DNA of 63,640 bases from an uncultured Alphaproteobacteria bacterium (GTDB lineage Bacteria > Pseudomonadota > Alphaproteobacteria > RF32 > CAG-239), in contig CALXTP010000010.1 of assembly GCA_944391435.1 (NCBI GenBank), forward strand, positions 1-63,640. The letters run 5' to 3'. How positions within the stretch are numbered: position 1 is the first letter of the stretch; the number at the start of each line of letters is the position of its first letter. Under the pieces are notes generated by a model that worked only from the letters and a program-made list of their open reading frames with translations, was not told the DNA's origin and did not search any database. Shown in pieces: positions 489 to 46,891 of this stretch. A program made the translations under genes and the position numbers.

Positions 489-746
489 CTGTTTGCGTTT
501 AACCGGGGAGGCTGTTTTTAAACCACGATATCTGTTATCGGGGCAATATAGGCTATTTCTGTTTATGCCCGTTCGGATTTCGGCAAAATATTTCATTTAT
601 TTTTTCAGTTATATTTCAGACTAACCATTTAATATAAAAACTAAGAATTTTTATATGAGGCAATTATGAAAAAATATCTGATTTCGCTTATTAGTCTGAT
701 TTTGCTTATTTCTTTGCTATGCCTGAATAAAAAAGAAAAGGAGATT

Positions 747-947
747 TCCGTAACCGCTGCCGTCCCGTTAATCATAAGCCGGGGAACTGGAGCCGAACTG
801 CGTCAGCCGTTGGGTGTAGTTATTGCCGGCGGGTTATGCTTGAGCCAGCTTTTGACAATTTTTACAACTCCGGTCATTTATCTGTATATAAATAAACTAA
901 GGCTGTATGTGGCAGACAAACGCAAGAAAAAGTCTGATAATATATAA
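747..947 (+). pseudogene. 3'-terminal remnant of an RND efflux permease (MdtB/MdtC-like); about 1000 codons of the gene are missing
   Basis: The last ~65 aa of ORF 666..947, '[49 protein letters not shown]', match the extreme C-terminus of RND permeases ('[29 protein letters not shown]'). The N-terminal 27 aa of the ORF are unrelated. Confidence 0.6.
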
Positions 948-1158: not shown

Positions 1159-1234
1159 TGGTGAGCCCGACGGGATTCGAACCCATGACCCTTTGATTAA
1201 AAGTCAAATGCTCTACCGACTGAGCTACGAGCCC
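1159..1234 (-). tRNA. tRNA-Lys (anticodon UUU), CCA encoded
   Basis: The reverse complement reads GGGCTCGTAGCTCAGTCGGTAGAGCATTTGACTTTTAATCAAAGGGTCATGGGTTCGAATCCCGTCGGGCTCACCA. It folds as a cloverleaf by hand with anticodon loop CTTTTAA. Confidence 0.95.
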
Positions 1235-1383: not shown

Positions 1384-1701
1384 ATGTCCACAATGAAAGA
1401 ACTTGAACAAGAAAGCAGATATGACATTTTGCAAAACGAAGCCGGCGAAATATTGATTATCATAAATTCGCGCGCCGGCGGGCCGGAGAATCCTCGTTTT
1501 GTATACGACGGCGGAACAACAGCTTTGCTATACCGCAATAAAGACGGTGCCGTTATCTTCAAAAATATAGCCAAAGATGCACGCCTGCCTTTGAAATCCG
1601 TAAGCTCAATGCTGATTGTTGAAGTAGAAGACGAAGACGTGGCTCGGGAATATGTTGTCCCCGTTCGCATCGTAAAAGATGTAAAAGCCTTGATAAAATA
1701 A
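1384..1701 (+). CDS. Hypothetical protein (105 aa)
   Basis: Open frame with AGGGG five nt upstream of ATG 1384 (the ORF track starts at GTG 1378). No motif recognised. Confidence 0.5.
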   Translation: MSTMKELEQESRYDILQNEAGEILIIINSRAGGPENPRFVYDGGTTALLYRNKDGAVIFKNIAKDARLPLKSVSSMLIVEVEDEDVAREYVVPVRIVKDVKALIK

Positions 1702-1766
1702 TATCCGTCGCTTAAAATCCCCACGTCTGTAGATTCTTTTAACTAAAGGAATGATTCGGAGGGAAA

Positions 1767-3440
1767 ATGGCGAATATGATGGTTTATCTGGTTGTAGCCG
1801 GATTGGTCGGGCTGTTGCGGTTGAGGATGAGATACGACCGCATAATGTCTTGGCTGATGTTTTTTGTTGCAGCCTTTTTGTTCATCAATTTTTCCGAACA
1901 GCTCTGCCGGGAATGGAAACAAGGCTTTTCTTTATTATGGAATAGTTCAAAAATCGGGGATATAACAATAGATTTTTACCCGTCTGAAAAAGAATGCCAA
2001 TTATTGTTTCCTGTTTTTTTTATTTCCCTGTTGACGATTCTGCATAATAATATTTTCCGCTATGAAGAAAAAAAGAGTGCTTTTAATTCTTTGATAATTT
2101 TAAATTTCGTGACGCTGAGCCTTCTGGTTTGTGCTGAAAATTACATCCAGCTGATGACCTGCGTTTTCGTGGCGGATATTTTGGGCTATGTCCTTTTAAA
2201 AGATGTTGATGCATCCCGGCGTTATGTTGTGTATAATTTTTTGGCCGATACTTGCCTGTTTATGATATTGGCACTGGTATGCGGCAAACTGCAAAGCCTT
2301 GAATTATCGGATATGCCCCGCTATGAAGAAATCGGCCGGCACAAGGACTTTGTAGGGCTTATAACGGCCTTGGCACTGCTGATAAAAAGCGGCTGTTTTA
2401 TGTTTCAGAGTTATCTGCTTGACTTGAGCACGGCCAAATTTCAGCGCATGAGTGCGGTTAATCTGCTGTTTTCGCCGTTGGCAGGAATTTTGGTTTTATT
2501 AAAGATGCACAGCCTGATAACATTGTCGGATTTGGCGTTGCCGCTGGTAAAAATAATCGGCTTTCTGACTTATGCGACGGGCATAGCTTACTTTGTGCTG
2601 ATAGATAATATCAAAAAAAAATCAGTTTATTTGAATATGGGGTTTATAGGCTTGGGGGTGTTGATGCTGGCCGAAAACGGCTTTGCCGCAAATTGGAATT
2701 TTTCTGCCTATTATACAGCCATATGCTTTTTTAACCTGATGTTGTTAAAAATTTACCTTTACCAAAATCATGAAACAAAAGTCAGCGCAATGTTGAATGC
2801 GAACGAAACCAATGTATGGCTGCTGCGCGGGACCTTGATACAGACGATTATGACCGCCAATATCTTTTTAACCGTCCTGTGGCGGCTGTCGTCTGAACTA
2901 TCATCGGTTTGGGTAATATACGGCGGAGTCATCATTATGTTGGCTCTGGCAGTAGTGTTAAATCATATATATCGTTCTCCGCATACACGCCGGCTTGAGG
3001 AATTGAATCCCAATCCGTTACGGGTAGTATCATTGTTAATAAATGTTGCTTTGCTGGCTTGGGGCAGCTGGTGTTTGCGGGCGTATATGTGGTATAATCT
3101 GGTATGGGTGTTATTATTTATGGCATTGATAGCCGTGCCGTGGCTGACAAAGTTGCGTTCGGCATATGAAATTGCATGGCTTCAGCGTGAAGATTTGAGC
3201 AAAAGTTTTTTCTTTTACACGCTGGTAACGCCGTTGATGTATTTAAGCCGGACTTTATGGGTAATGTTTGATTTTGTTTTTTCGGAAAAAATAGTTACGG
3301 CCGGGTTGGCCTGGCTTAACCGGCTGAGTTTGTCCGCTTTTTTAAAATTAAATCGTAAAAGCGGCAAAGCATGCTTAATATTCACATTGTTCGGTTTGGC
3401 CGTTTTTGCGGCATCGTTCTATCTGGGGAGGCAGAAATGA
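1767..3440 (+). CDS. nuoL: NuoL-like antiporter-type membrane subunit, highly diverged
   Basis: GGAGGG RBS. The 557-aa product is polytopic. 'VFVADILGYVLL', 'LLIKSGCFMFQSYLLDL' and the C-terminal lateral-helix-like 'FDFVFSEKIVTAGLAWLNRLSLSAFLKLNRKSG' line up with NuoL landmarks. It sits at the nuoL position, three genes before birA. Confidence 0.6.
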   Translation: MANMMVYLVVAGLVGLLRLRMRYDRIMSWLMFFVAAFLFINFSEQLCREWKQGFSLLWNSSKIGDITIDFYPSEKECQLLFPVFFISLLTILHNNIFRYEEKKSAFNSLIILNFVTLSLLVCAENYIQLMTCVFVADILGYVLLKDVDASRRYVVYNFLADTCLFMILALVCGKLQSLELSDMPRYEEIGRHKDFVGLITALALLIKSGCFMFQSYLLDLSTAKFQRMSAVNLLFSPLAGILVLLKMHSLITLSDLALPLVKIIGFLTYATGIAYFVLIDNIKKKSVYLNMGFIGLGVLMLAENGFAANWNFSAYYTAICFFNLMLLKIYLYQNHETKVSAMLNANETNVWLLRGTLIQTIMTANIFLTVLWRLSSELSSVWVIYGGVIIMLALAVVLNHIYRSPHTRRLEELNPNPLRVVSLLINVALLAWGSWCLRAYMWYNLVWVLLFMALIAVPWLTKLRSAYEIAWLQREDLSKSFFFYTLVTPLMYLSRTLWVMFDFVFSEKIVTAGLAWLNRLSLSAFLKLNRKSGKACLIFTLFGLAVFAASFYLGRQK

Positions 3441-4864
3441 ATTCGTATTTGCTGCTGTTGCTCGTTATTATACCGCTGATAGGGTCTTTGTTTGTTCTGG
3501 CGGCCCGCAGCGACCGTTTATATGCGCCGGAAAATGTTTATAATGTTTCGCTGTTGAGCCAAATAACAAACATCGGTGTCATTCTGTACATTTTTTCCCA
3601 ATGCGATATAACGGAAACCGGAATGCAGCTGGTGGAAAAATTATCTTGGACTGATTGTCCTCCTGTCATTTTGCATTTCGGGGTGGATATTTTTTCATTG
3701 ATGTTGATTTTAAGTGTCAATCTGGCTTTTTTTATCGGCGAAATATGCCTGCATCGCCTGACCGAACGTTCCAAAACGTTGGTGGCGTCGGGACTGCTTT
3801 TTGTCAGCCTGATAAACGGATATTTTATTGCGGCGGATGTTATAACGTTTTATATTTTTTTCGCCGCATTATCGGCTCCGCTGATAATTTTAATAAGCAC
3901 ATATGGCAGCCAGCGCAAAAAAACGGTTTTAGTCCGTTTTAGCCTGTATAATCTGATAGGGGCTCTGTTGTTGTTGGTCTCGGTTGTAATGATGTATAAT
4001 GTCCGTGATGAAAACGTATTTCTGAATGCGGCAGGAAAGCTCAGCTTTTACGGAAAGGAAAAATATTTTGTCTGGCTGGGTATCTTTTTTGCTTTCATAT
4101 CTCGTATGCCGATATGGCCGTTTCATTATTGGATATCATCTATTAACTCCAGTTTAAAAAATCCGTTGGTTTTTATCGTCGGCAATTTGATTCCGTTGAT
4201 TGGCCTGTACGGTTTTATCCGGTTTTGGCCGAATACGGTTCCTGCAGCCATTGCCGTTTATGCCCCGGTGTTTGAAATAATCTGTATCGTTACTATGATG
4301 TTCATAGCCCTGGTCAGCCTGAGCCACAAAGATATGCGCTATAAATTGTTTGCCTATACGACGGTATATTATCTTTTATATCTGACCGGCGTATTTTTGC
4401 CGACGGACGTATTAAAACAAAACATCGGCTATTCGCTGTTTGCTTATATCATCATCATCACGGTGTTATCTTTTTTAGTCAGCCATGTGGAATACCAGAA
4501 AAAAGTACTGGGCATTTACGGGTCGGGCGGTATTTTATGCTATATGCCGCGCACGTCAAAATGCCTGTCATTGTTTATCCTGGCCGGAATAGGGCTGCCG
4601 GTAACCCCGTTGTTTTGGAATAATTTTATCATTTTATCCGAAATATTTAATTATAATCTGATATTGGGGATTATGGTGGTATTGTCTACGTTTATTGTGG
4701 CACTGTCGTTGTTGGAAGAGTTGTTCCGCCTCAAAGATAAAAGTGCGGCATCGTCTGCCTGTGTATTGGGGACGGATTTGTCAACTCTGCATTATGCGGT
4801 CTATATCGGCAGCCTGCTGATATTGTTCTTTTCGTTTTTCAAACCGTTGTGGTTTGTTTTTTAA
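3437..4864 (+). CDS. nuoM: NuoM-like antiporter-type membrane subunit, highly diverged
   Basis: The ATGA start/stop overlap with the preceding gene places the start at 3437. The N-terminus 'MNSYLLLLLVIIPLIGSLFVL' is NuoM-like. 'AFISRMPIWPFHYWISS' and 'LYGFIRF' align with NuoM 'AFAVK.P..P.H.WLPDAH' and 'YG..RF'. Confidence 0.65.
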   Translation: MNSYLLLLLVIIPLIGSLFVLAARSDRLYAPENVYNVSLLSQITNIGVILYIFSQCDITETGMQLVEKLSWTDCPPVILHFGVDIFSLMLILSVNLAFFIGEICLHRLTERSKTLVASGLLFVSLINGYFIAADVITFYIFFAALSAPLIILISTYGSQRKKTVLVRFSLYNLIGALLLLVSVVMMYNVRDENVFLNAAGKLSFYGKEKYFVWLGIFFAFISRMPIWPFHYWISSINSSLKNPLVFIVGNLIPLIGLYGFIRFWPNTVPAAIAVYAPVFEIICIVTMMFIALVSLSHKDMRYKLFAYTTVYYLLYLTGVFLPTDVLKQNIGYSLFAYIIIITVLSFLVSHVEYQKKVLGIYGSGGILCYMPRTSKCLSLFILAGIGLPVTPLFWNNFIILSEIFNYNLILGIMVVLSTFIVALSLLEELFRLKDKSAASSACVLGTDLSTLHYAVYIGSLLILFFSFFKPLWFVF

Positions 4865-4870
4865 GGGAGA

Positions 4871-6301
4871 ATGGATGTGTTGTGGCGTCATCTGATATAC
4901 ACGTTTCCCGAATTGGTTCTGTTAGCGGGTATAATACATTTGCTGCTGTTATATTTGTTGTCATACGATGCAGCCAGGGTTTATGCGCGGGTATCCCGCT
5001 TTTGGCTTTTGATGTCATTGTTTTGGAGCATCGTGTTGTATGACAAAACGGCAGGACCGGCCTTTTTTGAAAACAACGCCTATACGCTGTTATTTAAATT
5101 GCTGACCGGATTCCTGGCATATATTATGCTGGGGCTGTCGGCTCTTTGGTTTGGTACGGAAAACCGCACCGGGTGCAAATATTATATTTTGGTGCTCTGC
5201 GCCTTAATTGTAAACAGCCTGCTGCTGGCATCAACACATTTGCTGCCGCTGTTGCTGTGTTATTGCCTGATGGCTTATATCAATTATCGCCTGCTGGGGA
5301 TAAGTTATGAAAAACTTCCCTCAGAAACGCCGGCACGCTATATGGGCGTGTCGGGAGCCATGGCGCTGATGTTCGCCATGGGTTTCTTGTATCTGCACGG
5401 GAGGCTGGACGGCAATGTGGAATATTCCGCCATAAGCAGGCTGTTCGCGGAAGAAGAGGGGAGCTTTCCTTTGTATGCATCGGCCGTGGCCGTGGTTGTC
5501 CCTTTTTTATACTCATTAGGGCTGGCGCCTTTTCATTTTATGGCTGAAGACAAAGCCGGCAAGGGGATATTGCCGGTCAGCCATTATTTTGCCCTGGTAT
5601 TGCCGATGGCATTATGGGGTGTGTTGATAAAGATGGATGTACAGCTTTTAAGTCCGTATCAGGCGGAGTTTGCCCCGGTTTATGCCGGCTTTGCCCTGCT
5701 GTCGGTCATATTTGGGGCAATGGGCGCTAACGCCAGGATAAATTTGCACCGCATAATGGCATATAGTTCTATGTACCATTTCGGAATGGTGTTGTTGCTG
5801 TTGTCTTTTTTTAAGCTTGAAACGGACTTTGCTGCATTTGTATATTTGCTGGTCGTCCTCCTTAGCCTGAATGGCGGCTATCTTGTTTTTTACAGTTTAA
5901 AAAGTCATGGCGAATATTTGGCCTCCATTACCTCATTGGCCGGGCTTGCCGAAACGCGTCCGTATACGACGGGTGCTTTGTTGGTCAGCCTTTTTTCGCT
6001 GATAGGCCTGCCGCCTTTAGCCGTTTTTATGGGGCAATTCGGGTGCATTTCGGATTTGTTGCGCAACGGATACTTTATCAGTTTGGGGATAGTGCTGTTT
6101 TTCCTTCTGGTACTGGCCAAAGCCTACCTGGAAATTATCAAAACGGCATATTTTGAAAAAAAGGTAAAGCTCTACGATGCCGAAAACCGGATTATCTCAT
6201 TGTATACGGTGTTTTGCATGGCTTGTGTTGTCATTGTGGCGTTTAACCCCGGAAATTTGTTCCAAATACTAAAGGATATGTTCTATGTCGTCAGTTTATA
6301 A
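4871..6301 (+). CDS. nuoN: NuoN-like antiporter-type membrane subunit, highly diverged
   Basis: The 476-aa product is polytopic. 'LGLAPFHFMAEDKAG' aligns with NuoN 'PFH.W.PDVY.G'. The gene lies directly upstream of birA and overlaps it. Confidence 0.6.
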   Translation: MDVLWRHLIYTFPELVLLAGIIHLLLLYLLSYDAARVYARVSRFWLLMSLFWSIVLYDKTAGPAFFENNAYTLLFKLLTGFLAYIMLGLSALWFGTENRTGCKYYILVLCALIVNSLLLASTHLLPLLLCYCLMAYINYRLLGISYEKLPSETPARYMGVSGAMALMFAMGFLYLHGRLDGNVEYSAISRLFAEEEGSFPLYASAVAVVVPFLYSLGLAPFHFMAEDKAGKGILPVSHYFALVLPMALWGVLIKMDVQLLSPYQAEFAPVYAGFALLSVIFGAMGANARINLHRIMAYSSMYHFGMVLLLLSFFKLETDFAAFVYLLVVLLSLNGGYLVFYSLKSHGEYLASITSLAGLAETRPYTTGALLVSLFSLIGLPPLAVFMGQFGCISDLLRNGYFISLGIVLFFLLVLAKAYLEIIKTAYFEKKVKLYDAENRIISLYTVFCMACVVIVAFNPGNLFQILKDMFYVVSL

Positions 6302-7061
6302 AGGAAAAATTGCCCTCTGGTCATGGTATGAAGCAGAAACGGTTGCATCCACCAACGATGAAATAAAAAAAATGGTTCCGGACAAGGGCCGCAACATTGT
6401 TTTCAGTGCCGTCTGCCAGACAAAAGGGCGTGGCCGGAGGGGGAGGAGCTGGAAAGGCATGGAAGGCAATTTGTTTTTTACATACAGTCAGGAGGCAGAA
6501 CCTGCGGAACTGGGACGGATAGTCTGCCTGACCGGCTTAAGCCTGGCAAAGGTTGTCAAAAAAATTGCGCCGGGCGCCCGGGTGCAAATAAAATGGCCGA
6601 ATGATGTGTTTTTAGAAGGAAAAAAGCTGTCAGGGATTTTGCTGGAGAATATTAGCGGAAATTTGTGGGCAATAGGCATTGGTGTAAATATTGTATCCGC
6701 GCCGGTGCTGACGGATATGCCGTATCGTGCCGTTTCGCTGCGGGAGTGCGGAATATCACTTGACCGGACGGAATTTTTACGTTATTATCTGGACGAATTT
6801 GCCGCGGACATGGAATTATACCGGCAGCAGGGCTTTGCCGCAATAAAGGGGCAATGGAGCGCTTTAGCCTTAAATTATCAGCAGGAAATAAGCATCAAAG
6901 CCGAAACGGGCATCAAAAGCGGTAAATTTGCGGGTATAGATGACAACGGTTATTTGCTGTTAAAAACGGGAGAAAAAATGGAGAGGGTAACGGCCGGAGA
7001 TATGTTTGCGGCCTGGAACGGAGAGTGCGGTCTTGAGGAAAAAGAAAAAACATATAAATAA
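6285..7061 (+). CDS. birA: Biotin--[acetyl-CoA-carboxylase] ligase
   Basis: Contains 'QTKGRGRRGRSW' (the GRGRxGRxW biotin-binding loop) and 'KWPNDV'. 258 aa. Confidence 0.9.
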   Translation: MSSVYKGKIALWSWYEAETVASTNDEIKKMVPDKGRNIVFSAVCQTKGRGRRGRSWKGMEGNLFFTYSQEAEPAELGRIVCLTGLSLAKVVKKIAPGARVQIKWPNDVFLEGKKLSGILLENISGNLWAIGIGVNIVSAPVLTDMPYRAVSLRECGISLDRTEFLRYYLDEFAADMELYRQQGFAAIKGQWSALALNYQQEISIKAETGIKSGKFAGIDDNGYLLLKTGEKMERVTAGDMFAAWNGECGLEEKEKTYK

Positions 7062-7083: not shown

Positions 7084-8766
7084 ATGAATGAATTTAAGAA
7101 AAAAGGGCTTTATTTTTTGCCGATGGGCGGTGCCGATGAAATCGGAATGAATATGTATGCGTATGCGGTCGGCGGCAAACTGATAGTCGTTGATGCCGGG
7201 TATGGTTTTTTAAATGATGACTTTCCGGGGATGGATATGTGTTACGCCTCGCCGGAATTTTTGGAGCATTACCGCGATGATATTTTGGGATTGTTCATTA
7301 CGCACGGGCACGAAGACCATTTGGGCGCAATAGCCCAGGTATGGCCGTCGTTGCAGTGCCCGGTATACGGCACGAATTTTTCTCTGGGTCTGGTTCGGGA
7401 AAGATTGGGCGAATATAAGCTGCAGGATGCTGTTCCGTTGGTTTCCGTAAACCGGGAGCCGACTGTCCGGGTCGGAGATTTTGAAATAACTTTCATTCCG
7501 ATAGCACATTCCATTCCGGAAACCTCGGCCTTATTTATCAAAACGCCGTACGGCAATGTTATGCATGCGACGGATTGGCGCTTTGACGATAATAAGCTTT
7601 CAATGGTAAAAACCGATTTCGCCGGGCTAAAAAAGGCTGCATCGGAAGGCGTGGATATTTTCGTTTGCGATTCCACAAACGTTATGGTGGACGAGCCCCA
7701 GGCCAGCGAAGAAGACGTGCGCCAGAATTTGATAAAAATAATTCCGGAAATGCAGGGCGGTATTGTCGCAACGTGTTTTGCCTCCAATATTATGCGGCTG
7801 GAAAGCTTGATATTGGCAGCGCGTGCCGCCGGGAGGACGCCTGTTTTGGCCGGGCGCAGCCTGGTAACCAATGCCAAGATTGCCCGGGAATGTGGATATC
7901 TTAAAGAATATGCGGATTTGCATACTTTAGAAGAAGTAGACGGCATAACTTCCGATAAAGCTTTGTATATTTGCACTGGCTCACAGGCCAATTACCGCAG
8001 CGCGATGACGCAGATAGCCAACGATGAGAGCAAATACATCAAACTGGAAGCGGAAGACAATGTTATTTTTTCTTCCAAAATAATTCCCGGCAATGAAGAT
8101 AAAATTGAGCGTCTGCAGGAAAAAATCCTGGCCAAAGGCGTTAATCTCGTAACCGAAGAAGATTATCTGGTTCATACGTCCGGGCATGCCAGCCGCAAAG
8201 ACTTGCAGGCAATGTATGAGCTGCTGAATCCGCGGATAGTTTTGCCCGTACATGGCGATAAAAAATTTATTCGCGAGCATAAGCGTTTTGCTAAAAGCTG
8301 CGGTGTTGAAGACGTTTTTTCGGCAGAAAACGGGGATGTTTGCTTATATCAGGGCGGCAAGATTGAAAAAATGGAACAAATCGCCGTTGACATTATGGGG
8401 GTTGACCGCGGGCGGAGCGTATCGCTCGGTTCTGAATTGATAAAAAACCGCCGCCGCATCATGTATAATTGCACATTGTTCATTTCCGCCGTTATCAGCC
8501 GCGATTACCGCTTAAAATCCCTGCAATTCAGCTCCATAGATATTTTGGAAGAAAACGAATGGTACGTTCTGCATGAAGAAATAATGAAAGAGGTAACGCC
8601 GCTGATAGAAAAGAAATTGTCGGAACATCCATCGCATAATTCGGTAGAAGACTTTATCCGCGGGCGGATTCGCCGCCGCATTTACGGCGCCACCGACATC
8701 AAGCCGGTAACGGCATTGCATGTGCATTGGGAAGAAGACGAAGATAAGGCGGAAAATAACGTATGA
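7084..8766 (+). CDS. rnj: Ribonuclease J (metallo-beta-lactamase/beta-CASP)
   Basis: Contains 'ITHGHEDHLGA' (the HxHxDH motif). 560 aa. It follows birA, as is typical in Alphaproteobacteria. Confidence 0.9.
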   Translation: MNEFKKKGLYFLPMGGADEIGMNMYAYAVGGKLIVVDAGYGFLNDDFPGMDMCYASPEFLEHYRDDILGLFITHGHEDHLGAIAQVWPSLQCPVYGTNFSLGLVRERLGEYKLQDAVPLVSVNREPTVRVGDFEITFIPIAHSIPETSALFIKTPYGNVMHATDWRFDDNKLSMVKTDFAGLKKAASEGVDIFVCDSTNVMVDEPQASEEDVRQNLIKIIPEMQGGIVATCFASNIMRLESLILAARAAGRTPVLAGRSLVTNAKIARECGYLKEYADLHTLEEVDGITSDKALYICTGSQANYRSAMTQIANDESKYIKLEAEDNVIFSSKIIPGNEDKIERLQEKILAKGVNLVTEEDYLVHTSGHASRKDLQAMYELLNPRIVLPVHGDKKFIREHKRFAKSCGVEDVFSAENGDVCLYQGGKIEKMEQIAVDIMGVDRGRSVSLGSELIKNRRRIMYNCTLFISAVISRDYRLKSLQFSSIDILEENEWYVLHEEIMKEVTPLIEKKLSEHPSHNSVEDFIRGRIRRRIYGATDIKPVTALHVHWEEDEDKAENNV

Positions 8767-12083: not shown

Positions 12084-14113
12084 TGTTTGCTCCTGCCGAT
12101 TTCATCAAAAATTTGTTTTAACCGTTTTCCGACTGCCAGATTCGTATAGCCTTGAAGCGTAATTTCCCGCGCTTGTTCAGCCTTTTGTTTGCGGGCTTCG
12201 GGATGGGCAAGGTAAAAGTCAACCAAAGTTTTGAATTCTTCTTTGTTTTTAAACATCGGGATGCTGTCGCCGAAAATCTCCGCAATATAGGGGCTGTATT
12301 CGGAAATAACAAAAGCGCCGGCGGCACTGGCATCATAAAGGCGGTTGATAACCAGCCCCATCTCTGCCAAGTCATCAGGATGGTCGCTCAAGACGATTTT
12401 GGCTGACGAATAATACCGGTTAAGTTCATTGTTGTTGATATAATTGCCTTTAATATGCTTGTCGGGAATAATCCCTTGCCAATTCAAACCGTACACATCA
12501 ATATCATAGCCGTTTTCCACGGCGTAGGTAACGCTGATGCGTTCATACCACGGCGAACCGACGAACAGCAAATCCGATGCGGCTTCGGCATCAAATTCGG
12601 GCTTGAATTTATAGGGGTTTGTAAATTGCGGCACAAATACGGCTTTATGCCCCGCTTTTTGCAATGCCGGGATAAGCGCTTTTGCCGGAGTCGCGATAAC
12701 ATCAAAATATTGCAGTTCGTCATTTAGCGAAATATCGGTATTATAACGGAAGGTATCGCGTGTGTTTTTGAATTTGGCGGTATCGGGAATTTCCGTTGGA
12801 AAATAAAGATACATAATGCGGTTTTTATGTTCATCTTCAAAGCCGGTCCGGTTATATTTGAACTGCATATAGAGCAGGTTTCCGGCATCGTTATAAAAAT
12901 CATCTTCATAAAAATCTTGGCTGAAATAATAATTTTCAACTTCAAAGCCGTTTTGTTTAAGGCCTTCCGCCAAATCTTTGGCCAGCCAGTGTTCGCCGAC
13001 ATCGGTTGCATCGGCCGGCCACGGGCATTTAAGAGCCAGTTTGCGATAATCAGGCGTTTTGTCTTTTGTTTTTTTTAACATCGGGGCGGCAGTTTGCGGC
13101 AATGCCTGCATGATTTTTTGTGCCGCCGCGGCATTGGTAAAGTTTTTTAGCGTGATATCCTGTGCCTGTTTTGCTTTTTTAGAGCGTTCTTCCGGGTGTG
13201 CGAGATAATAGTCCAAGAGCTGTTTGAGTTCTTCTTTGGTCCTAAACATCGGGATACTGTCGCCATAAAATTGTTCAATTTCGGGCATATAGTCGGAGAT
13301 AAGAAAACCGCCGCTGGCCGTAACGTCAAAAACGCGGTTGCTGATAAACCCTTTTTCTTTCATGTCCGGACGGGTATCGTTCAGGACAATTTTTGCCGAA
13401 GCATAATATTTGTGCAGTTCGCGATTGTCAATATACGTCCCTTTAACCATTTCAGGCGGCGCCTGCCTTTCCCAGCCTTCGCCGAAGAGGGCAACGTCAA
13501 AGCCGCTTTCCATTGCCCATTTGGCGCTGATACGTTCATATCCCGGCCGTCCGACAAACAAAATATCATAAGCGGCCTCCGGGGCATATTCATAAAAAAA
13601 CTTTTCCGGATTCGTAAATTGCGGCACAAAAATCGTTTTTAGGCCAAGTTTATCCATCTTTTTTTGATAAGTCGGAGAGGCAACGGCGATGAGCTGAAAA
13701 TCCCACAATTCCGTTTGCAGCGACATCCAGGCCGGTTCGTCAATGTTTTTGAGGTTTATAAATTTCTCCGTATTGGCTGTTTCCAGCGGATAATAGAGAT
13801 ATAAAACATTTGTTTTGTCAGGATTAAGCGGCGGATTAAAAGGGATAAAACCGTGCATATACACATCAATCGGAGCATTTTGGCTGCTTGCAGGATAAAA
13901 ATCGTCCATATAAGCCGGGCTGACAGAATAGCCCAGACGTTCAAATCCGCTTTTCAAATCCTGTCCCAAAATATAATCGCCCCAGGAATACCAGTTTTTT
14001 CCGGCAGAAATTTTAAGGCTGATATCCTCTGCCTCGGCTCTGGGGGCAAAAGCCAAAAGTGCCAGCATAAGGCAGGAGTGCCGCAAAGCCCGAAATGTCC
14101 GCCGCCATATCAT
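12080..14113 (-). CDS. Signal-peptide protein with two tandem CgeB-like glycosyltransferase-family modules
   Basis: N-terminus 'RALRHSCLMLALLAFAPRAEA/ED'. Each half ends with 'AKIVL(N/S)D...S(D/E)Y.P.I...(Y/F)GDSIPMF..KEE.K.L.D(Y/F)YLAHPE.R.K.A..A...TL', which resembles the PF13524/CgeB signature. Confidence 0.65.
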   Translation of the reverse strand: MIWRRTFRALRHSCLMLALLAFAPRAEAEDISLKISAGKNWYSWGDYILGQDLKSGFERLGYSVSPAYMDDFYPASSQNAPIDVYMHGFIPFNPPLNPDKTNVLYLYYPLETANTEKFINLKNIDEPAWMSLQTELWDFQLIAVASPTYQKKMDKLGLKTIFVPQFTNPEKFFYEYAPEAAYDILFVGRPGYERISAKWAMESGFDVALFGEGWERQAPPEMVKGTYIDNRELHKYYASAKIVLNDTRPDMKEKGFISNRVFDVTASGGFLISDYMPEIEQFYGDSIPMFRTKEELKQLLDYYLAHPEERSKKAKQAQDITLKNFTNAAAAQKIMQALPQTAAPMLKKTKDKTPDYRKLALKCPWPADATDVGEHWLAKDLAEGLKQNGFEVENYYFSQDFYEDDFYNDAGNLLYMQFKYNRTGFEDEHKNRIMYLYFPTEIPDTAKFKNTRDTFRYNTDISLNDELQYFDVIATPAKALIPALQKAGHKAVFVPQFTNPYKFKPEFDAEAASDLLFVGSPWYERISVTYAVENGYDIDVYGLNWQGIIPDKHIKGNYINNNELNRYYSSAKIVLSDHPDDLAEMGLVINRLYDASAAGAFVISEYSPYIAEIFGDSIPMFKNKEEFKTLVDFYLAHPEARKQKAEQAREITLQGYTNLAVGKRLKQIFDEIGRSKQ

Positions 14114-15687: not shown

Positions 15688-16134
15688 ATGGAAAAAGGAA
15701 AATATTCGGAGGAAGACAAAAAATTTATGTATATAACCGGCAAATCTTTGAATGCGTCGCGCATGGAAGAGCTGTTAAATTTCATCAGGCTGAGCGGTTT
15801 TAAAAAAATAGGCATCGCCAATTGTTTTTCCGTTAACAAAATTGCGGAAAAGCTGAAAGAAATGCTGGTTCTCCAAGGGCTGGACGTGTATATGGTCAAC
15901 TGCAAAGAGTCCGGCCTCATGGCTGCGGATATATCGCCGGAATTGCAAGGTGCTTCATGCGATCCGATGGCGCAGGCGCAATATTTGAATGAAGCCGAAA
16001 CCGATTTGAATATCAACTTCGGGCTTTGCCTGGGGCACGGGCTGTTGTTTCAAAAATATTCGGCGGCTCCGGTAACCACATTGCTGGTAAAAGATCCGCG
16101 CCACAAGCATAACATAATGGAAAATTTTGTTTAA
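15688..16134 (+). CDS. DUF1847-family protein (short form)
   Basis: 'KKIGIANCFSV', 'VNCKESG', 'CDPMAQAQYLNEAETDLNINFGLCLGHGLLFQKYSAAPVTTLLVKD' match the C-terminal two thirds of DUF1847 as I remember it. Confidence 0.6.
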   Translation: MEKGKYSEEDKKFMYITGKSLNASRMEELLNFIRLSGFKKIGIANCFSVNKIAEKLKEMLVLQGLDVYMVNCKESGLMAADISPELQGASCDPMAQAQYLNEAETDLNINFGLCLGHGLLFQKYSAAPVTTLLVKDPRHKHNIMENFV

Positions 16135-30062: not shown

Positions 30063-30217
30063 AACAACGAAACGGCAATCACGCCGTTTTTTAATTCACA
30101 CGCAGGCAGGCGTCGGCATATTTGGCTTACGGGCAAAAGATGCCTCACGCTCCGGTGCTTAAGAGATTAAGCCGAGGTCCTGCGGAGGTTTAACCGGAAA
30201 ATAAGGAAAAATAAAAT

Positions 30218-33331: not shown

Positions 33332-34054
33332 TCAGCGTTTTTCTGAAGCCAGGGTGCGAAGCTTTGCCGTGAACGCTGGCAGGGTTTGACTGATTTTACC
33401 CAAAATAACCGTATCAAAATAACGATAGTTTTGAGGCGGTGTCAGATTTAGAGCAACGGTTTCTGCTCCGTTTAGTTTTGCTTCTTGAACAAAAACGGAT
33501 GCCGGCGGAATTTCTCCCGACGTTCCCGCCGCAATGAACAAATCGGCATTTCTTAAGAGCTGTTTAATTTGCCGTTCACAAAAAACAGGTTCATTAAACA
33601 AAACAATATTGGGGCGGACAACGCCTGTTCGTCCGCATGCCGGGCAGGGCGTATCTGCTGCGATATCCTCCCATGTTTCCCAAACCGTATCGCAATCCTG
33701 GCAGCGAACCTGATTGATTTGCCCATGGATATGAAAGATATCGCCACTCTGTGCCCGTTCGTGCAGGGTATCCAGATTTTGCGTAATAATAGACACCTCG
33801 CCCGGATACGATTTTTGCAGTTCGGTCAAAGCAATATGTGCGGTATTGGGGTTTGCGCCGGCCATTTCCCGCCGCAACCGGTTGTAAAAATCCAGCAGGT
33901 TATCCCGGTTATCGTCCAAAGCCGCATGGGATGCTATATCCTCAATCTTGCAGCCATTCCACAGCCCGCCGTTGCCGCGAAAAGTGGCAAGCCCGGATTC
34001 GGCAGAAAAGCCCGCTCCGGTCAAAAAAACGATGTGATGATAAATTTTTGCCAT
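33332..34054 (-). CDS. cobB: NAD-dependent protein deacylase (Sir2/CobB family)
   Basis: Contains 'VFLTGAGFSAESGLATFRG', 'TQNLDTLHERA' and 'HIHG', plus the Zn-ribbon Cys pairs 'CQDC...CPAC'. 240 aa. Confidence 0.88.
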   Translation of the reverse strand: MAKIYHHIVFLTGAGFSAESGLATFRGNGGLWNGCKIEDIASHAALDDNRDNLLDFYNRLRREMAGANPNTAHIALTELQKSYPGEVSIITQNLDTLHERAQSGDIFHIHGQINQVRCQDCDTVWETWEDIAADTPCPACGRTGVVRPNIVLFNEPVFCERQIKQLLRNADLFIAAGTSGEIPPASVFVQEAKLNGAETVALNLTPPQNYRYFDTVILGKISQTLPAFTAKLRTLASEKR

Positions 34055-35768: not shown

Positions 35769-36665
35769 ATGAAAAAACGCACTATAGCCGCCATCATCGT
35801 ATTGCTGGCGTTGATAGGCGGAATACTGTTGCTTGCACGCGCCAGCCGGCAACGGGAACCGCTCGTATCCGTCGTTATGTTAACGTACCGGCGGGCAAAT
35901 CTTTTGCCTAAAGCGATAGAAGGGGTATTGGCGCAGGATTTTGACGATTTTGAATTTATCATCATTAACGATGGTTCTGCGGACGGAACGGATGATATTG
36001 TCAAAAAATATAGTGCGGGTGATTCGCGGATACGTTATTATAAAAACAGGCAAAACAGGGGAATATCCTACTCCCGCAACCGTGCGGCATCTTATGCGCG
36101 CGGAAAATATATTATGATAATGGACGACGATGATGAGATTTTGCCGCAGCGCATGTCAAAGCAGGTTGAATTTTTGGAAAAAAATCCCGATATTGCGGCG
36201 GTGGCCGGCCAATTGAAAGGCTTTCGGCGTATTCCGTTGCATCACGATGAAATAGCCGCCGGGCTAATCCAATATAACAACTTCGGCAATGCCAACGTAA
36301 TGTATCGCCGCGATTTTGCACAAAAGAACCACATCCGTTATGATGAAAATCTGCTGGTTTCCGAAGATTGGGATTTTTGGCTGCAAATGTTGTTTGCCGG
36401 CGGCAGGCTGGCGGCTTTGCCCGATGACGTGCTGCTAAGGAATGTGGAAAGCAGAAGATACCACAAAATCGGCTATGAAGAAGCAAACGTGATAGTGCGG
36501 CGTAAAGTCGGAGAATATTTTTCCCCGCAAAATGCCGAAGCATTTTATGCAGCAGACGGGTGCGGCAAATTAAAAATGATTGCCGGGAAAAACATTTTTT
36601 CGCCTGCATTTGTTCAACAGGCGCTTGAGGTTAATTGCCGTGGGCCTCTGCCAGAAGCCCGTTGA
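35769..36665 (+). CDS. Family-2 glycosyltransferase
   Basis: N-terminal TM, then 'VSVVMLTYRRANLLPKAIEGVLAQDFDDFEFIIINDGSADGT' and 'MDDDDE'. Confidence 0.85.
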   Translation: MKKRTIAAIIVLLALIGGILLLARASRQREPLVSVVMLTYRRANLLPKAIEGVLAQDFDDFEFIIINDGSADGTDDIVKKYSAGDSRIRYYKNRQNRGISYSRNRAASYARGKYIMIMDDDDEILPQRMSKQVEFLEKNPDIAAVAGQLKGFRRIPLHHDEIAAGLIQYNNFGNANVMYRRDFAQKNHIRYDENLLVSEDWDFWLQMLFAGGRLAALPDDVLLRNVESRRYHKIGYEEANVIVRRKVGEYFSPQNAEAFYAADGCGKLKMIAGKNIFSPAFVQQALEVNCRGPLPEAR

Positions 36666-37350
36666 CAAACGAAGGCAGCGTGTCGCCGGCTTTCCCCATG
36701 ACGTGCTTGTCAAAATAAAAGTTATTGGATGTCGGCTCCAAGTTAAATTCTATCGTATCCGCACCGTAGTATTTTGCCGTCTGGACAAAGCCGGCTGCCG
36801 GATAGACGACACCTGAAGTACCGACGGAAACAAAAAGGTCTGACGAACGCAGCAGTTTTTCCACCTTGTCCATATACAGCAGGTTTTCGCCGAAAAAAAC
36901 GATATTCGGCTTCATCATGCCTGCCACTTGGCAGTTGTCGCAAACCGTTTCGGAAGTAACATCTCCCCAGGTTTCCATGATATGGCCGCAGTTCATGCAT
37001 ACGGCCTGATTGATTTGCCCGTGGATATGGATAACGTTTTGACTCTTGGCTTTTTCGTGCAGCGTATCAATATTTTGCGTTACAATATAAACCTCACCGG
37101 GATATTCCTGTTGCAGGCGTGTGATGGCCAGATGTCCGGCATTTGGTTTGGCGTTCCATAACTCAGGCTTCATATTATTATAAAAGTCATGGACATAGTC
37201 CGGGTTGCGGTAATAGGCTTCAATCGTAGCAACATCCTCCACCCGGTGGTGATTCCACAATCCGTTTTCGCTGCGAAACGTGGCCAATCCGGATTCGGCG
37301 GAGATTCCCGCCCCGGTCAAAAATAAAATACGCCGGTATTGTTTCTTCAT
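36631..37350 (-). CDS. cobB: NAD-dependent protein deacylase (Sir2/CobB family), second paralog
   Basis: Contains 'LFLTGAGISAESGLATFRSENGLWN', 'TQNIDTLHEKA' and 'HIHG', plus 'CMNC...CDNC'. 239 aa. Collinear with the first paralog. Confidence 0.88.
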   Translation of the reverse strand: MKKQYRRILFLTGAGISAESGLATFRSENGLWNHHRVEDVATIEAYYRNPDYVHDFYNNMKPELWNAKPNAGHLAITRLQQEYPGEVYIVTQNIDTLHEKAKSQNVIHIHGQINQAVCMNCGHIMETWGDVTSETVCDNCQVAGMMKPNIVFFGENLLYMDKVEKLLRSSDLFVSVGTSGVVYPAAGFVQTAKYYGADTIEFNLEPTSNNFYFDKHVMGKAGDTLPSFVNGLLAEAHGN

Positions 37351-46774: not shown

Positions 46775-46891
46775 CAAACCAGTTTTTGATAACAAAAATA
46801 ACACTCTGCGGAGTGCCGTCAGTCAGCGAGGGTTCGCACACTGGCGCAATTTTTTTTATCAATAAAGGGTGAAATAAAACAAGGAAGATAA

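Follow-up and report, generated by a model that had tools for sequence, protein, structure and literature searches.

Three adjacent genes in the 63,640-nt contig CALXTP010000010.1 of an uncultured Alphaproteobacteria bacterium (assembly GCA_944391435.1; this whole 63.6-kb stretch is hereafter "the window") encode membrane proteins, here named L, M and N, that descend from the antiporter-like subunits NuoL, NuoM and NuoN of respiratory complex I, yet depart from them in most of the features by which functional members are recognized, i.e., scores above the curated cut-offs, the residues of the proton relay, and co-encoding with nuoA-K. Judged from the alignments, the canonical proton path of the trio is dismantled. 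Our preferred reading, to which we give about even odds on the basis of sequence comparisons and a structure model, is that the trio may now be a structural or anchoring, non-pumping membrane module with a non-redox role.

The three open reading frames (ORFs; 557, 475 and 476 aa) are tightly packed: the ATG of M lies within the ATGA that closes L (3437-3440), 6 nt separate M from N, and N overlaps birA by 17 nt. These boundaries agree exactly with those of the initial annotation, which had been made from the sequence alone and which also proposed an L/M/N antiporter-like identity. Shine-Dalgarno (GGAGG-type) ribosome-binding sites precede all three genes, and none contains an internal stop in the window. 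The proposed identity is borne out by two curated family models and PF00361 for M and N, and by a family profile and a structure model for L. M scored 186.7 bits on TIGR01972 (E=6e-55), below the curated cut-off of 263.8, and 99.5 bits on PF00361 (E=3e-28), above the cut-off of 21.5; likewise, N scored 148.8 bits on TIGR01770 (E=2.5e-43), below the curated cut-off of 332.6, and 69.8 bits on PF00361, above the same 21.5. As a single sequence, L had no Pfam or NCBIfam match (the cut-off of TIGR01974, the NuoL model, is 407.5). The profile of the L family matches NuoL/ND5 chains (E=8e-17), and the AlphaFold model of L (pLDDT 83, pTM 0.80) hits no PDB chains other than those of NuoL, ND5 and NdhF (E about 1e-14, TM 0.6-0.7); the AlphaFold models used here, for L and for a small protein S described below, are monomers built from homologues of the window's proteins. 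Among solved structures, those closest to M and N come from Paracoccus, itself an alphaproteobacterium, and then from plant mitochondria. M and N are unmistakable, if very divergent, forms of NuoM and NuoN.

The position of the trio provides a second line of evidence on its origin. On the 4.6-Mb replicon of Shinella (Rhizobiaceae), genes are ordered nuoH-nuoI-nuoJ-nuoK-nuoL-nuoM-nuoN-birA-rnj, so that the nuoN-birA-rnj junction presupposed by the initial annotation is indeed seen there. Given this order, the trio represents the 3′ end, still in its original place, of an ancestral nuo operon, the first eleven genes of which have gone from the locus. The trio shares ancestry, gene order, this junction and fold with NuoL/M/N of complex I (Paracoccus denitrificans 8qby; Shinella NZ_CP069303.1). 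The differences are as clear: Shinella carries nuoH-K directly upstream, whereas the trio locus is without nuoA-K and nothing resembling nuoK, nuoJ or nuoI lies upstream of L in the window, and Shinella NuoL, NuoM and NuoN reach 921.7, 637.2 and 499.6 bits on TIGR01974, TIGR01972 and TIGR01770, compared to no match for L, 187 bits for M and 149 bits for N.

Next, we examined how widely the trio occurs. In a scan of one genome per species, the M-like gene was present in at least 177 species-level genomes, all of them uncultured gut or rumen Alphaproteobacteria from humans, mice, chickens, ruminants and deer, listed at NCBI as "Acetobacter sp.", "Azospirillum sp.", "Ca. Scatocola" or "Alphaproteobacteria bacterium"; NCBI taxonomy places Ca. 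Scatocola as "Rhodospirillaceae incertae sedis". Relatives of M number in the hundreds, with identities between 100% and about 40% and a common length of about 475 aa. Related loci were fetched through the M-like gene, and lineages that have lost the trio altogether would escape this sample. The order (S)-L-M-N-birA-rnj is common to 83 of 83 related loci, with L, M and N each an uninterrupted ORF, which extends to the relatives the earlier observation of 4.5 kb free of internal stops and frameshifts. Full-length copies were found for L in 82/83 loci, for M in 83/84 and for N in 81/82; the M and N copies that fall short run into the end of a contig, and the single short L results from an in-frame deletion. 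The loci fall into clade A, which includes the window (M ≥54% identical; M signature [A/V/T/S]-R-L-Y-Y-N), and clade B, which includes Ca. Scatocola (M signature E-R-L-Y-Y/F-N). Between the clades, N and L are 22-30% identical.

In complex I, the functional residues of each antiporter-like subunit are an ion pair, a Lys at the center, at least one bridging His and, at the distal end, Lys (NuoL and NuoN) or Glu (NuoM); NuoL has an exit Asp in addition (PMC9271201). We tabulated these positions for 81-83 family members aligned with Paracoccus, Mycobacterium, mitochondrial and full-length Shinella references (HMMER, MAFFT); the register that had first been set by eye was reproduced by the alignments to the Paracoccus, Mycobacterium and Shinella subunits. 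In M, specific residues have replaced the relay groups of TM7, TM8 and TM12 and both bridging His: the TM7 Lys is Arg in 81/83 members (R223 in the window), the central TM8 Lys is Leu in 78/83 (L254), the first bridging His is Tyr in 79/83 (Y312), the second is Tyr or Phe in all 83 (Y337), and the distal TM12 Glu is Asn, again in 83/83 (N396). The PDAH loop has become S-S-x-N (SSIN in the window), S235 is present in 74/83, and H230 is conserved in 83/83. The TM5 Glu is still Glu in 46/83 members, being kept in clade B, and is A143 in the window. Since the signature elements R-L-Y-..-N are common to both clades, the core rewiring of M predates the clade A/B split, with further loss since then in clade A. 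Overall, the alignments show M to have been rewired in a fixed manner, with invariant replacements, and not eroded. Separately, 72/83 members have a Glu near the start of TM9 where Paracoccus NuoM has Phe (E280 in the window), a newly acquired acidic residue that may be embedded in the membrane.

N and L have changed in other ways. In N, the ion pair and the central Lys are gone: the charged positions of TM5, TM7 and TM8 have given way to variable small or hydrophobic residues (C132, S215 and P245 in the window), with Pro, Val, Leu or Ile at the TM8 position across the family. The distal TM12 Lys of N is Lys in 40/81 members and Q389 in the window, and its TM7 His is retained in 80/81 (H222). 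L is ~100 aa shorter than NuoL and has lost the TM5 Glu (now Phe, Cys or Gly; F134 in the window), the TM8 His (Asn, Ser or Leu; N232) and both the His and the Lys of TM11 (A318, F322). The TM12 "FFSKD" segment, which holds the distal Lys-Asp, is a gap in 82/82 members of the L family, TM12 being assigned from the full-length Shinella alignment, and the modelled helix 350-378 is continuous without a conserved charge. L does keep the TM6 Asp (D161; 78/82) and the TM7 Lys (K207; 82/82) as an Asp/Lys ion pair. Across the trio, a full ion pair persists in L only, the central TM8 residue persists in neither L, M nor N, and the canonical distal TM12 residue is present in none of the window's three proteins. 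From complex I, M and N keep the TM7 His with its "P.H.W" motif and, in TM12, the "LP.T..F" motif; L keeps its Asp/Lys pair as well as the lateral helix, acidic residues included. The initial annotation had proposed losses at almost every canonical charged position; this stands for M and N in the window and goes too far for L, where D161/K207 and the acidic residues of the lateral helix remain and hardly vary.

We then estimated dN/dS ratios (Nei-Gojobori) from pairs with unsaturated dS (<1). The ratios lay at about 0.07-0.17 (L), 0.02-0.08 (M) and 0.04-0.28 (N), the maximum of 0.28 coming from a pair with a dS of only 0.02, and compare with 0.08-0.21 for birA and 0.03-0.05 for rnj. By this measure, the trio is under purifying selection as strong as that on the adjoining housekeeping genes, which excludes plain decay. 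Slow pseudogenisation of a lost complex I was one of the two options raised in the initial annotation, and scores well under the curated cut-offs (M 187 vs 264 bits, N 149 vs 333, L none) and the debris of an RND transporter gene nearby would be in line with it. However, the frameshifts and near-neutral dN/dS named there as marks of plain pseudogenisation were not seen: 83 loci show no frameshift or stop, lengths are constant down to 40% identity, dN/dS lies well below 1 and not above that of birA, and ribosome-binding sites are good. With the genes intact in 83 loci, M present in at least 177 species and its replacements invariant, we consider a decaying relic scarcely credible.

Purifying selection could also act without any function of the trio itself, i.e., the ORFs may persist through translational coupling to the essential birA-rnj genes, with selection requiring only that the products be foldable and non-toxic. 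The overlaps between L and M (ATGA) and between N and birA (17 nt), the appearance of a single operon with no convincing internal terminator, and the fast evolution of N and L between clades all fit such a scheme. Yet dN/dS values of 0.02-0.1 and 63 near-invariant positions in M far exceed what "do no harm" selection would produce, and the N-birA junction is not fixed in length, ranging from -20 to +59 nt among loci. In addition, a clean 4.5-kb deletion should be easy if these genomes are as gene-dense as those of Rs-D84, a gut alphaproteobacterial order (PMC12306168), and none occurs in the 83 loci retrieved through M, while the lone deletion observed is in-frame and spares the conserved parts of L. 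Persistence through coupling thus seems very improbable to us.

The distribution of conserved positions was then considered against the architecture of complex I. There, the subunits follow the order N-M-L, and the TM4-8 half of each faces its proximal neighbor and the TM9-13 half its distal one (3RKO, 4HEA), a geometry that we infer to apply to the window's trio. M is the most constrained subunit, with 63 positions conserved at ≥95% compared to 19 in N, and constraint is weakest, across all three proteins, in the proximal half of N (the TM5, TM7 and TM8 positions). In L, conservation peaks in TM4-8 and in the lateral helix and is lowest in TM9-15. Both the lateral helix and the terminal anchor TM helix of NuoL are found in the L model, as a 47-residue helix (482-528) followed by a TM helix (533-556), in a region with pLDDT 55-79; the lateral helix, whose persistence had been singled out for checking, is thus retained in the model. 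Its residues P489, W498, D502 and E507 align with P597, W606, D610 and D615 of Shinella, and these motif residues are conserved in 74-82 of 82 members. The short L mentioned above, from an AT-rich relative (locus L049, 8541-9959, + strand), is 472 aa long and has lost ~85 aa in frame from its distal/C-terminal half; it retains K207 of TM7, the motif of the lateral helix and the final TM helix. Finally, the TM12 Lys/Arg of N lies opposite the TM5 Glu of M at the N|M interface of complex I, and in 75/81 genomes the two residues occur together or are missing together.

Mapped in this way, the conserved residues would lie at the two internal contacts, N|M and M|L, and on the clamp, with the outward-facing ends eroded. 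Interface and clamp conservation, the position of the deletion in locus L049 and the N-M covariation together lead us to argue that the three proteins probably continue to form an N|M|L arm, with the helix of L as its clamp.

Whether such an arm could still be driven by other components depends on its genomic setting. nuoA-K were not found in the window or in the flanks of the 83 related loci of either clade, flank searches extending at most 10 kb on each side of the gene; the same flanks and the 63-kb window contain no Mrp or NiFe-hydrogenase genes, and the window contains no respiratory gene. We infer that nuoA-K may be absent genome-wide, with the freely varying proximal face of N as indirect support. 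Within 10 kb of the trio, clade B neighborhoods include genes for pyruvate:ferredoxin oxidoreductase, polyferredoxin or ferredoxins, a flavodoxin-like protein, Tat and an [FeFe]-hydrogenase large-subunit domain (examples at L087:20917-21296 and L085:853-4203). In one lineage of clade B, this hydrogenase domain is encoded by a separate gene ~6 kb downstream of the trio. These neighbors indicate ferredoxin-based anaerobic fermenters. For the order Rs-D84, a published reconstruction (PMC12306168) describes small, gene-dense genomes of 0.7-1.6 Mb that have neither a TCA cycle nor respiratory chains, reports complexes I-IV, standard transporters and lipid synthesis as lacking, and notes many hypothetical membrane proteins; the trio goes unmentioned.

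The trio might thus be the passive distal arm of a larger machine whose driver (nuoA-K, a hydrogenase, a formate dehydrogenase or a ferredoxin-oxidizing module) is encoded elsewhere, with pumping confined to a proximal, E-channel-like part. Our searches were confined to the window and the locus flanks, clade B genomes are larger and have pyruvate:ferredoxin oxidoreductase, ferredoxins and an [FeFe]-hydrogenase domain within ~10 kb, and the lateral helix of L and the interfaces are conserved as they would be in a larger assembly, all of which leaves room for a remote driver. The half of N that would contact NuoK/J/A is nevertheless the least constrained, the opposite of what a retained partner would impose. 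Moreover, alphaproteobacterial nuoA-N normally form a single operon, no nuo, Mrp or NiFe-hydrogenase gene occurs in the 83 flanks or the window, and Rs-D84 is reported without complexes I-IV (PMC12306168). We regard a driver encoded elsewhere as improbable.

Under the scaffold reading that we prefer, nuoA-K would have been deleted from an alphaproteobacterial nuo operon, with the L-M-N remnant staying in situ and persisting as a stand-alone membrane arm that would be expressed, folded and assembled. The three proteins would pack as N|M|L, with the lateral helix of L clamping its neighbors, and the outward halves, i.e., TM4-8 of N (formerly facing NuoK/J/A) and the distal tip of L (TM9-15), would be free to vary or drop. 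In M, every proton carrier would have given way to a group of similar shape that does not titrate at physiological pH or to a hydrophobic one (Arg or Leu for Lys, Tyr for His, Asn for Glu), which may freeze the subunit in one electrostatic state. A subunit frozen by such replacements would in turn argue that the arm is kept for a non-pumping role, possibly as an inner-membrane anchor or scaffold in these gut anaerobes. The second option of the initial annotation, a membrane-arm module retained for a non-redox and possibly non-pumping role, is supported by all findings, although the role itself is not established.

Several points weigh against a scaffold. A purely structural role does not readily explain why polar residues of M are invariant at R223, H230, S234/S235, N395/N396 and Y312, and this pattern, as opposed to the variable hydrophobic one of N, would also fit a new binding or conduction site. 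No partner for a scaffold to organize was identified at the locus or in the flanks. The assembly itself is argued from conservation geometry and a monomer model, the N-M covariation is suggestive and reflects about two independent loss events, and the absence of nuoA-K refers to the window and the 83 locus flanks. Lastly, the literature on Rs-D84 (Ca. Enterousia) may not describe the window's clade.

Given the invariant polar positions, the trio may instead have become a new kind of stand-alone membrane machine derived from the distal arm of complex I, in which a polar network of fixed, non-titratable residues (Arg/His/Ser/Asn/Tyr in M), together with the Asp/Lys pair of L, would stand in for the relay. 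It would serve a non-proton function of importance to an entire radiation of anaerobic gut Alphaproteobacteria, such as solute, anion or lipid handling or the organization of the envelope for life with a partner; we consider this possible rather than probable. Under another reading, which we see as rather unlikely, M and the M-facing half of L would be the center of a rewired transporter or channel with a new path, e.g., a fixed-charge polar conduit for anions, Na+/K+ or small solutes, or a groove for lipids. A need for unusual uptake would be understandable if, as in Rs-D84, standard transporters and lipid synthesis are lacking (PMC12306168). The replacements in M are specific, polar and invariant in both clades (R223 81/83, H230 83/83, N396 83/83, Y312 79/83, S235 74/83), and a new conserved Glu in TM9 of M (E280) and the titratable Asp/Lys pair kept by L could contribute to such a path. 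However, with Leu in place of the central Lys of M in 78/83 members and variable hydrophobic residues in N there is no continuous polar axis, and L is without the distal exit segment. Folding alone, moreover, can keep buried polar networks invariant, and we know of no member of the PF00361 superfamily that transports without the Lys/Glu relay.

The trio is neither an Mrp antiporter nor a recruitment of the DAB, NDH-1MS or hydrogenase type. Like the trio, the Mrp antiporter (MrpA/MrpD; 6z16, 7qru, 7d3u) combines several PF00361 subunits without a redox module, and it is a weaker match to M and N, which score far lower on the MrpD model than on the NuoM and NuoN models. Mrp also requires MrpB/C/E/F/G, none of which occurs in any flank of the trio loci, and MrpA/D keep the Lys/Glu relay that is gone in the trio. 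NdhF3/NdhD3-CupA of cyanobacterial NDH-1MS (6tjv), DabB/MpsA of DAB-type CO2 uptake, HycC/HyfB of formate hydrogenlyase (7z0s) and MbhH of membrane-bound hydrogenase (6cfw) are precedents for the use of PF00361 proteins beyond NADH-driven pumping, again with weaker matches. These recruited systems have an adjoining partner (CupA, DabA or hydrogenase subunits), whereas the trio has no such neighbor: precomputed Pfam calls of the flanks include no DabA or CupA domain, as DAB/Mps or NDH-1MS would require, and the flanks contain no NiFe large- or small-subunit or NuoH-like genes, as expected for a group-4 hydrogenase or formate hydrogenlyase. The recruited families (NDH-1MS, DAB, formate hydrogenlyase and Mbh) each keep a charged relay. 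By analogy only, as no sequence relationship exists, the trio resembles pseudoenzymes and pseudo-transporters, in which catalytic residues are likewise replaced while fold and surfaces are selected. To our knowledge, no pseudo-transporter case has been described for a complex I antiporter-like trio, and we found no published description of this L-M-N module in the literature.

Complex I antiporter-like subunits are among the most conserved membrane proteins, and their Lys/His/Glu chain is central to the debate on proton pumping. The trio offers a natural experiment on this chain, beyond the reach of mutagenesis, as the redox and proximal modules are removed (at the locus) and the relay of M and N is swapped almost entirely for non-titratable residues, with the proteins still strongly selected in well over 100 species. 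It could help separate what is needed for folding and assembly (interfaces, broken-helix motifs, the clamp and the L salt bridge) from what is needed for proton transfer, and would imply a second, non-bioenergetic use of the distal arm of complex I. It also flags ~4.5 kb of conserved, unexplained membrane proteome in common uncultured gut bacteria of humans, mice, poultry and ruminants. Public annotations call these proteins "hypothetical protein" or "NADH-quinone oxidoreductase subunit M"; the latter label is misleading and could inflate the respiratory potential estimated in metagenome surveys.

Table 1 Coordinates of the trio, its neighbors and selected features within the window
Feature	Position	Strand	Basis
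L, NuoL-derived protein, 557 aa	1767-3440	+	ORF list, family profile, model, alignments
M, NuoM-derived protein, 475 aa	3437-4864	+	ORF list, profile matches, alignments
N, NuoN-derived protein, 476 aa	4871-6301	+	ORF list, profile matches, alignments
Lateral (clamp) helix of L, residues 482-528	3210-3350	+	Model secondary structure, conservation
Terminal anchor TM helix of L, residues 533-556	3363-3434	+	Model secondary structure
L residue D161	2247-2249	+	Alignment
L residue K207	2385-2387	+	Alignment
M residue E280, near TM9 start	4274-4276	+	Alignment
birA, biotin-protein ligase	6285-7061	+	TIGR00121, 151 bits vs cut-off 83; Shinella synteny
rnj, RNase J	7084-8766	+	TIGR00649 E=7e-106, PF22505; Shinella synteny
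S, 105-aa small conserved protein	1384-1701	+	Start ATG 1384 judged from relatives
Possible sigma-70-like promoter, TTGATA-17-TAAAAT, 10/12 match, in S/L spacer	1690-1718	+	Promoter scan
tRNA-Lys (UUU)	1159-1234	-	ARAGORN; Rfam RF00005, 73 bits
RND-permease C-terminal fragment, 93-aa ORF	666-947	+	PF00873 E=4e-15; NF007905 E=9e-21

Upstream of L, the initial annotation had listed a tRNA-Lys, gene debris, no nuoK/J/I and a 105-aa orphan, and only the last entry needs revision, since the 105-aa protein, S, adjoins L on the same strand in 68/83 loci. A copy of S occurs somewhere in 73/83; in the loci where it does not adjoin L, it is relocated or missing from the flank. S is 57-93% identical across both clades with dN/dS of 0-0.1, i.e., more conserved than M or birA, and carries the motifs GGPENPRFVYDG, ALLYR and VAREY.VP.R. 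It is soluble and mostly beta (model pLDDT 82), and had no match in Pfam, NCBIfam or PADLOC and no fold match in the PDB or BFVD. The S domain comprises 549 representatives at 50% clustering, many of them fused to other modules, in TIR proteins (C-terminal to TIR), STAND NTPase-TPR proteins and Sel1-repeat proteins. From these sequences, S seems to belong to a widespread domain family that has so far gone undescribed and may be connected with conflict or signalling. The idea that S is a hidden subunit of complex I, either NuoK or an accessory one, was rejected, as the protein is soluble and beta-rich, matches no family or fold, and has its domain in TIR, STAND and Sel1 fusions elsewhere. A functional tie of S to the trio is not established.

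Further upstream, residues ~29-91 of the 93-aa ORF correspond to nothing but the final ~60 residues of AcrB/MdtC-type RND efflux permeases, covering positions 977-1020 of the 1021 in the PF00873 profile. The ORF is the debris of a deleted RND transporter gene and no part of the L-M-N module, and the remnant fits ongoing genome reduction. In the divergent locus L049, a tRNA-Lys-like sequence is likewise found upstream of L, no S gene lies nearby, and an ankyrin-repeat protein is encoded just upstream of L. The promoter-like match in the S/L spacer is a possible operon promoter, though no better than chance, as the scan returned 21 sites compared to 22.5 expected in shuffled sequences; the terminator scan was likewise at chance level.

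Across relatives, locus L049 included, ankyrin-repeat proteins, a Fic-domain protein and a T3SS/flagellar-type ATPase are encoded near the cluster (L001:19344-20810; L049:7397-8155; L002:8168-9496 and 13820-13983). Such ankyrin, Fic and T3SS-type features are often tied to host- or partner-dependent lifestyles.

The rest of the window is mostly devoted to housekeeping and envelope functions, with gyrB, rpsB, tsf, an aminoacyl-tRNA synthetase, a sigma factor, prfC, ffh and rpsP-rimM-trmD-rplS, along with genes for trigger factor, fmt, glycosyltransferases, MFS, ABC-F and DsbA-like proteins, and PitA. Two RNA leaders score just above their gathering scores: RF01815 before rpsB (42 bits; 30097-30212, + strand) and RF01793 before ffh (39 bits; 46811-46854, + strand). 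Two SIR2-family genes lie <3.5 kb apart on the - strand, at about 33332-34054 and 36631-37350 (L084:4608-5330 and 7907-8626); between them is a gene for a small protein weakly matching the Rickettsia 17-kDa antigen, alongside a prephenate-dehydrogenase-like gene and a glycosyltransferase gene. A DUF1847 protein (E=3e-32; 15688-16134, + strand) is encoded between an MFS transporter and a family-92/family-2 glycosyltransferase. In total, the window holds an unusually high number of glycosyltransferases, at least six, which suggests an elaborate surface glycan.

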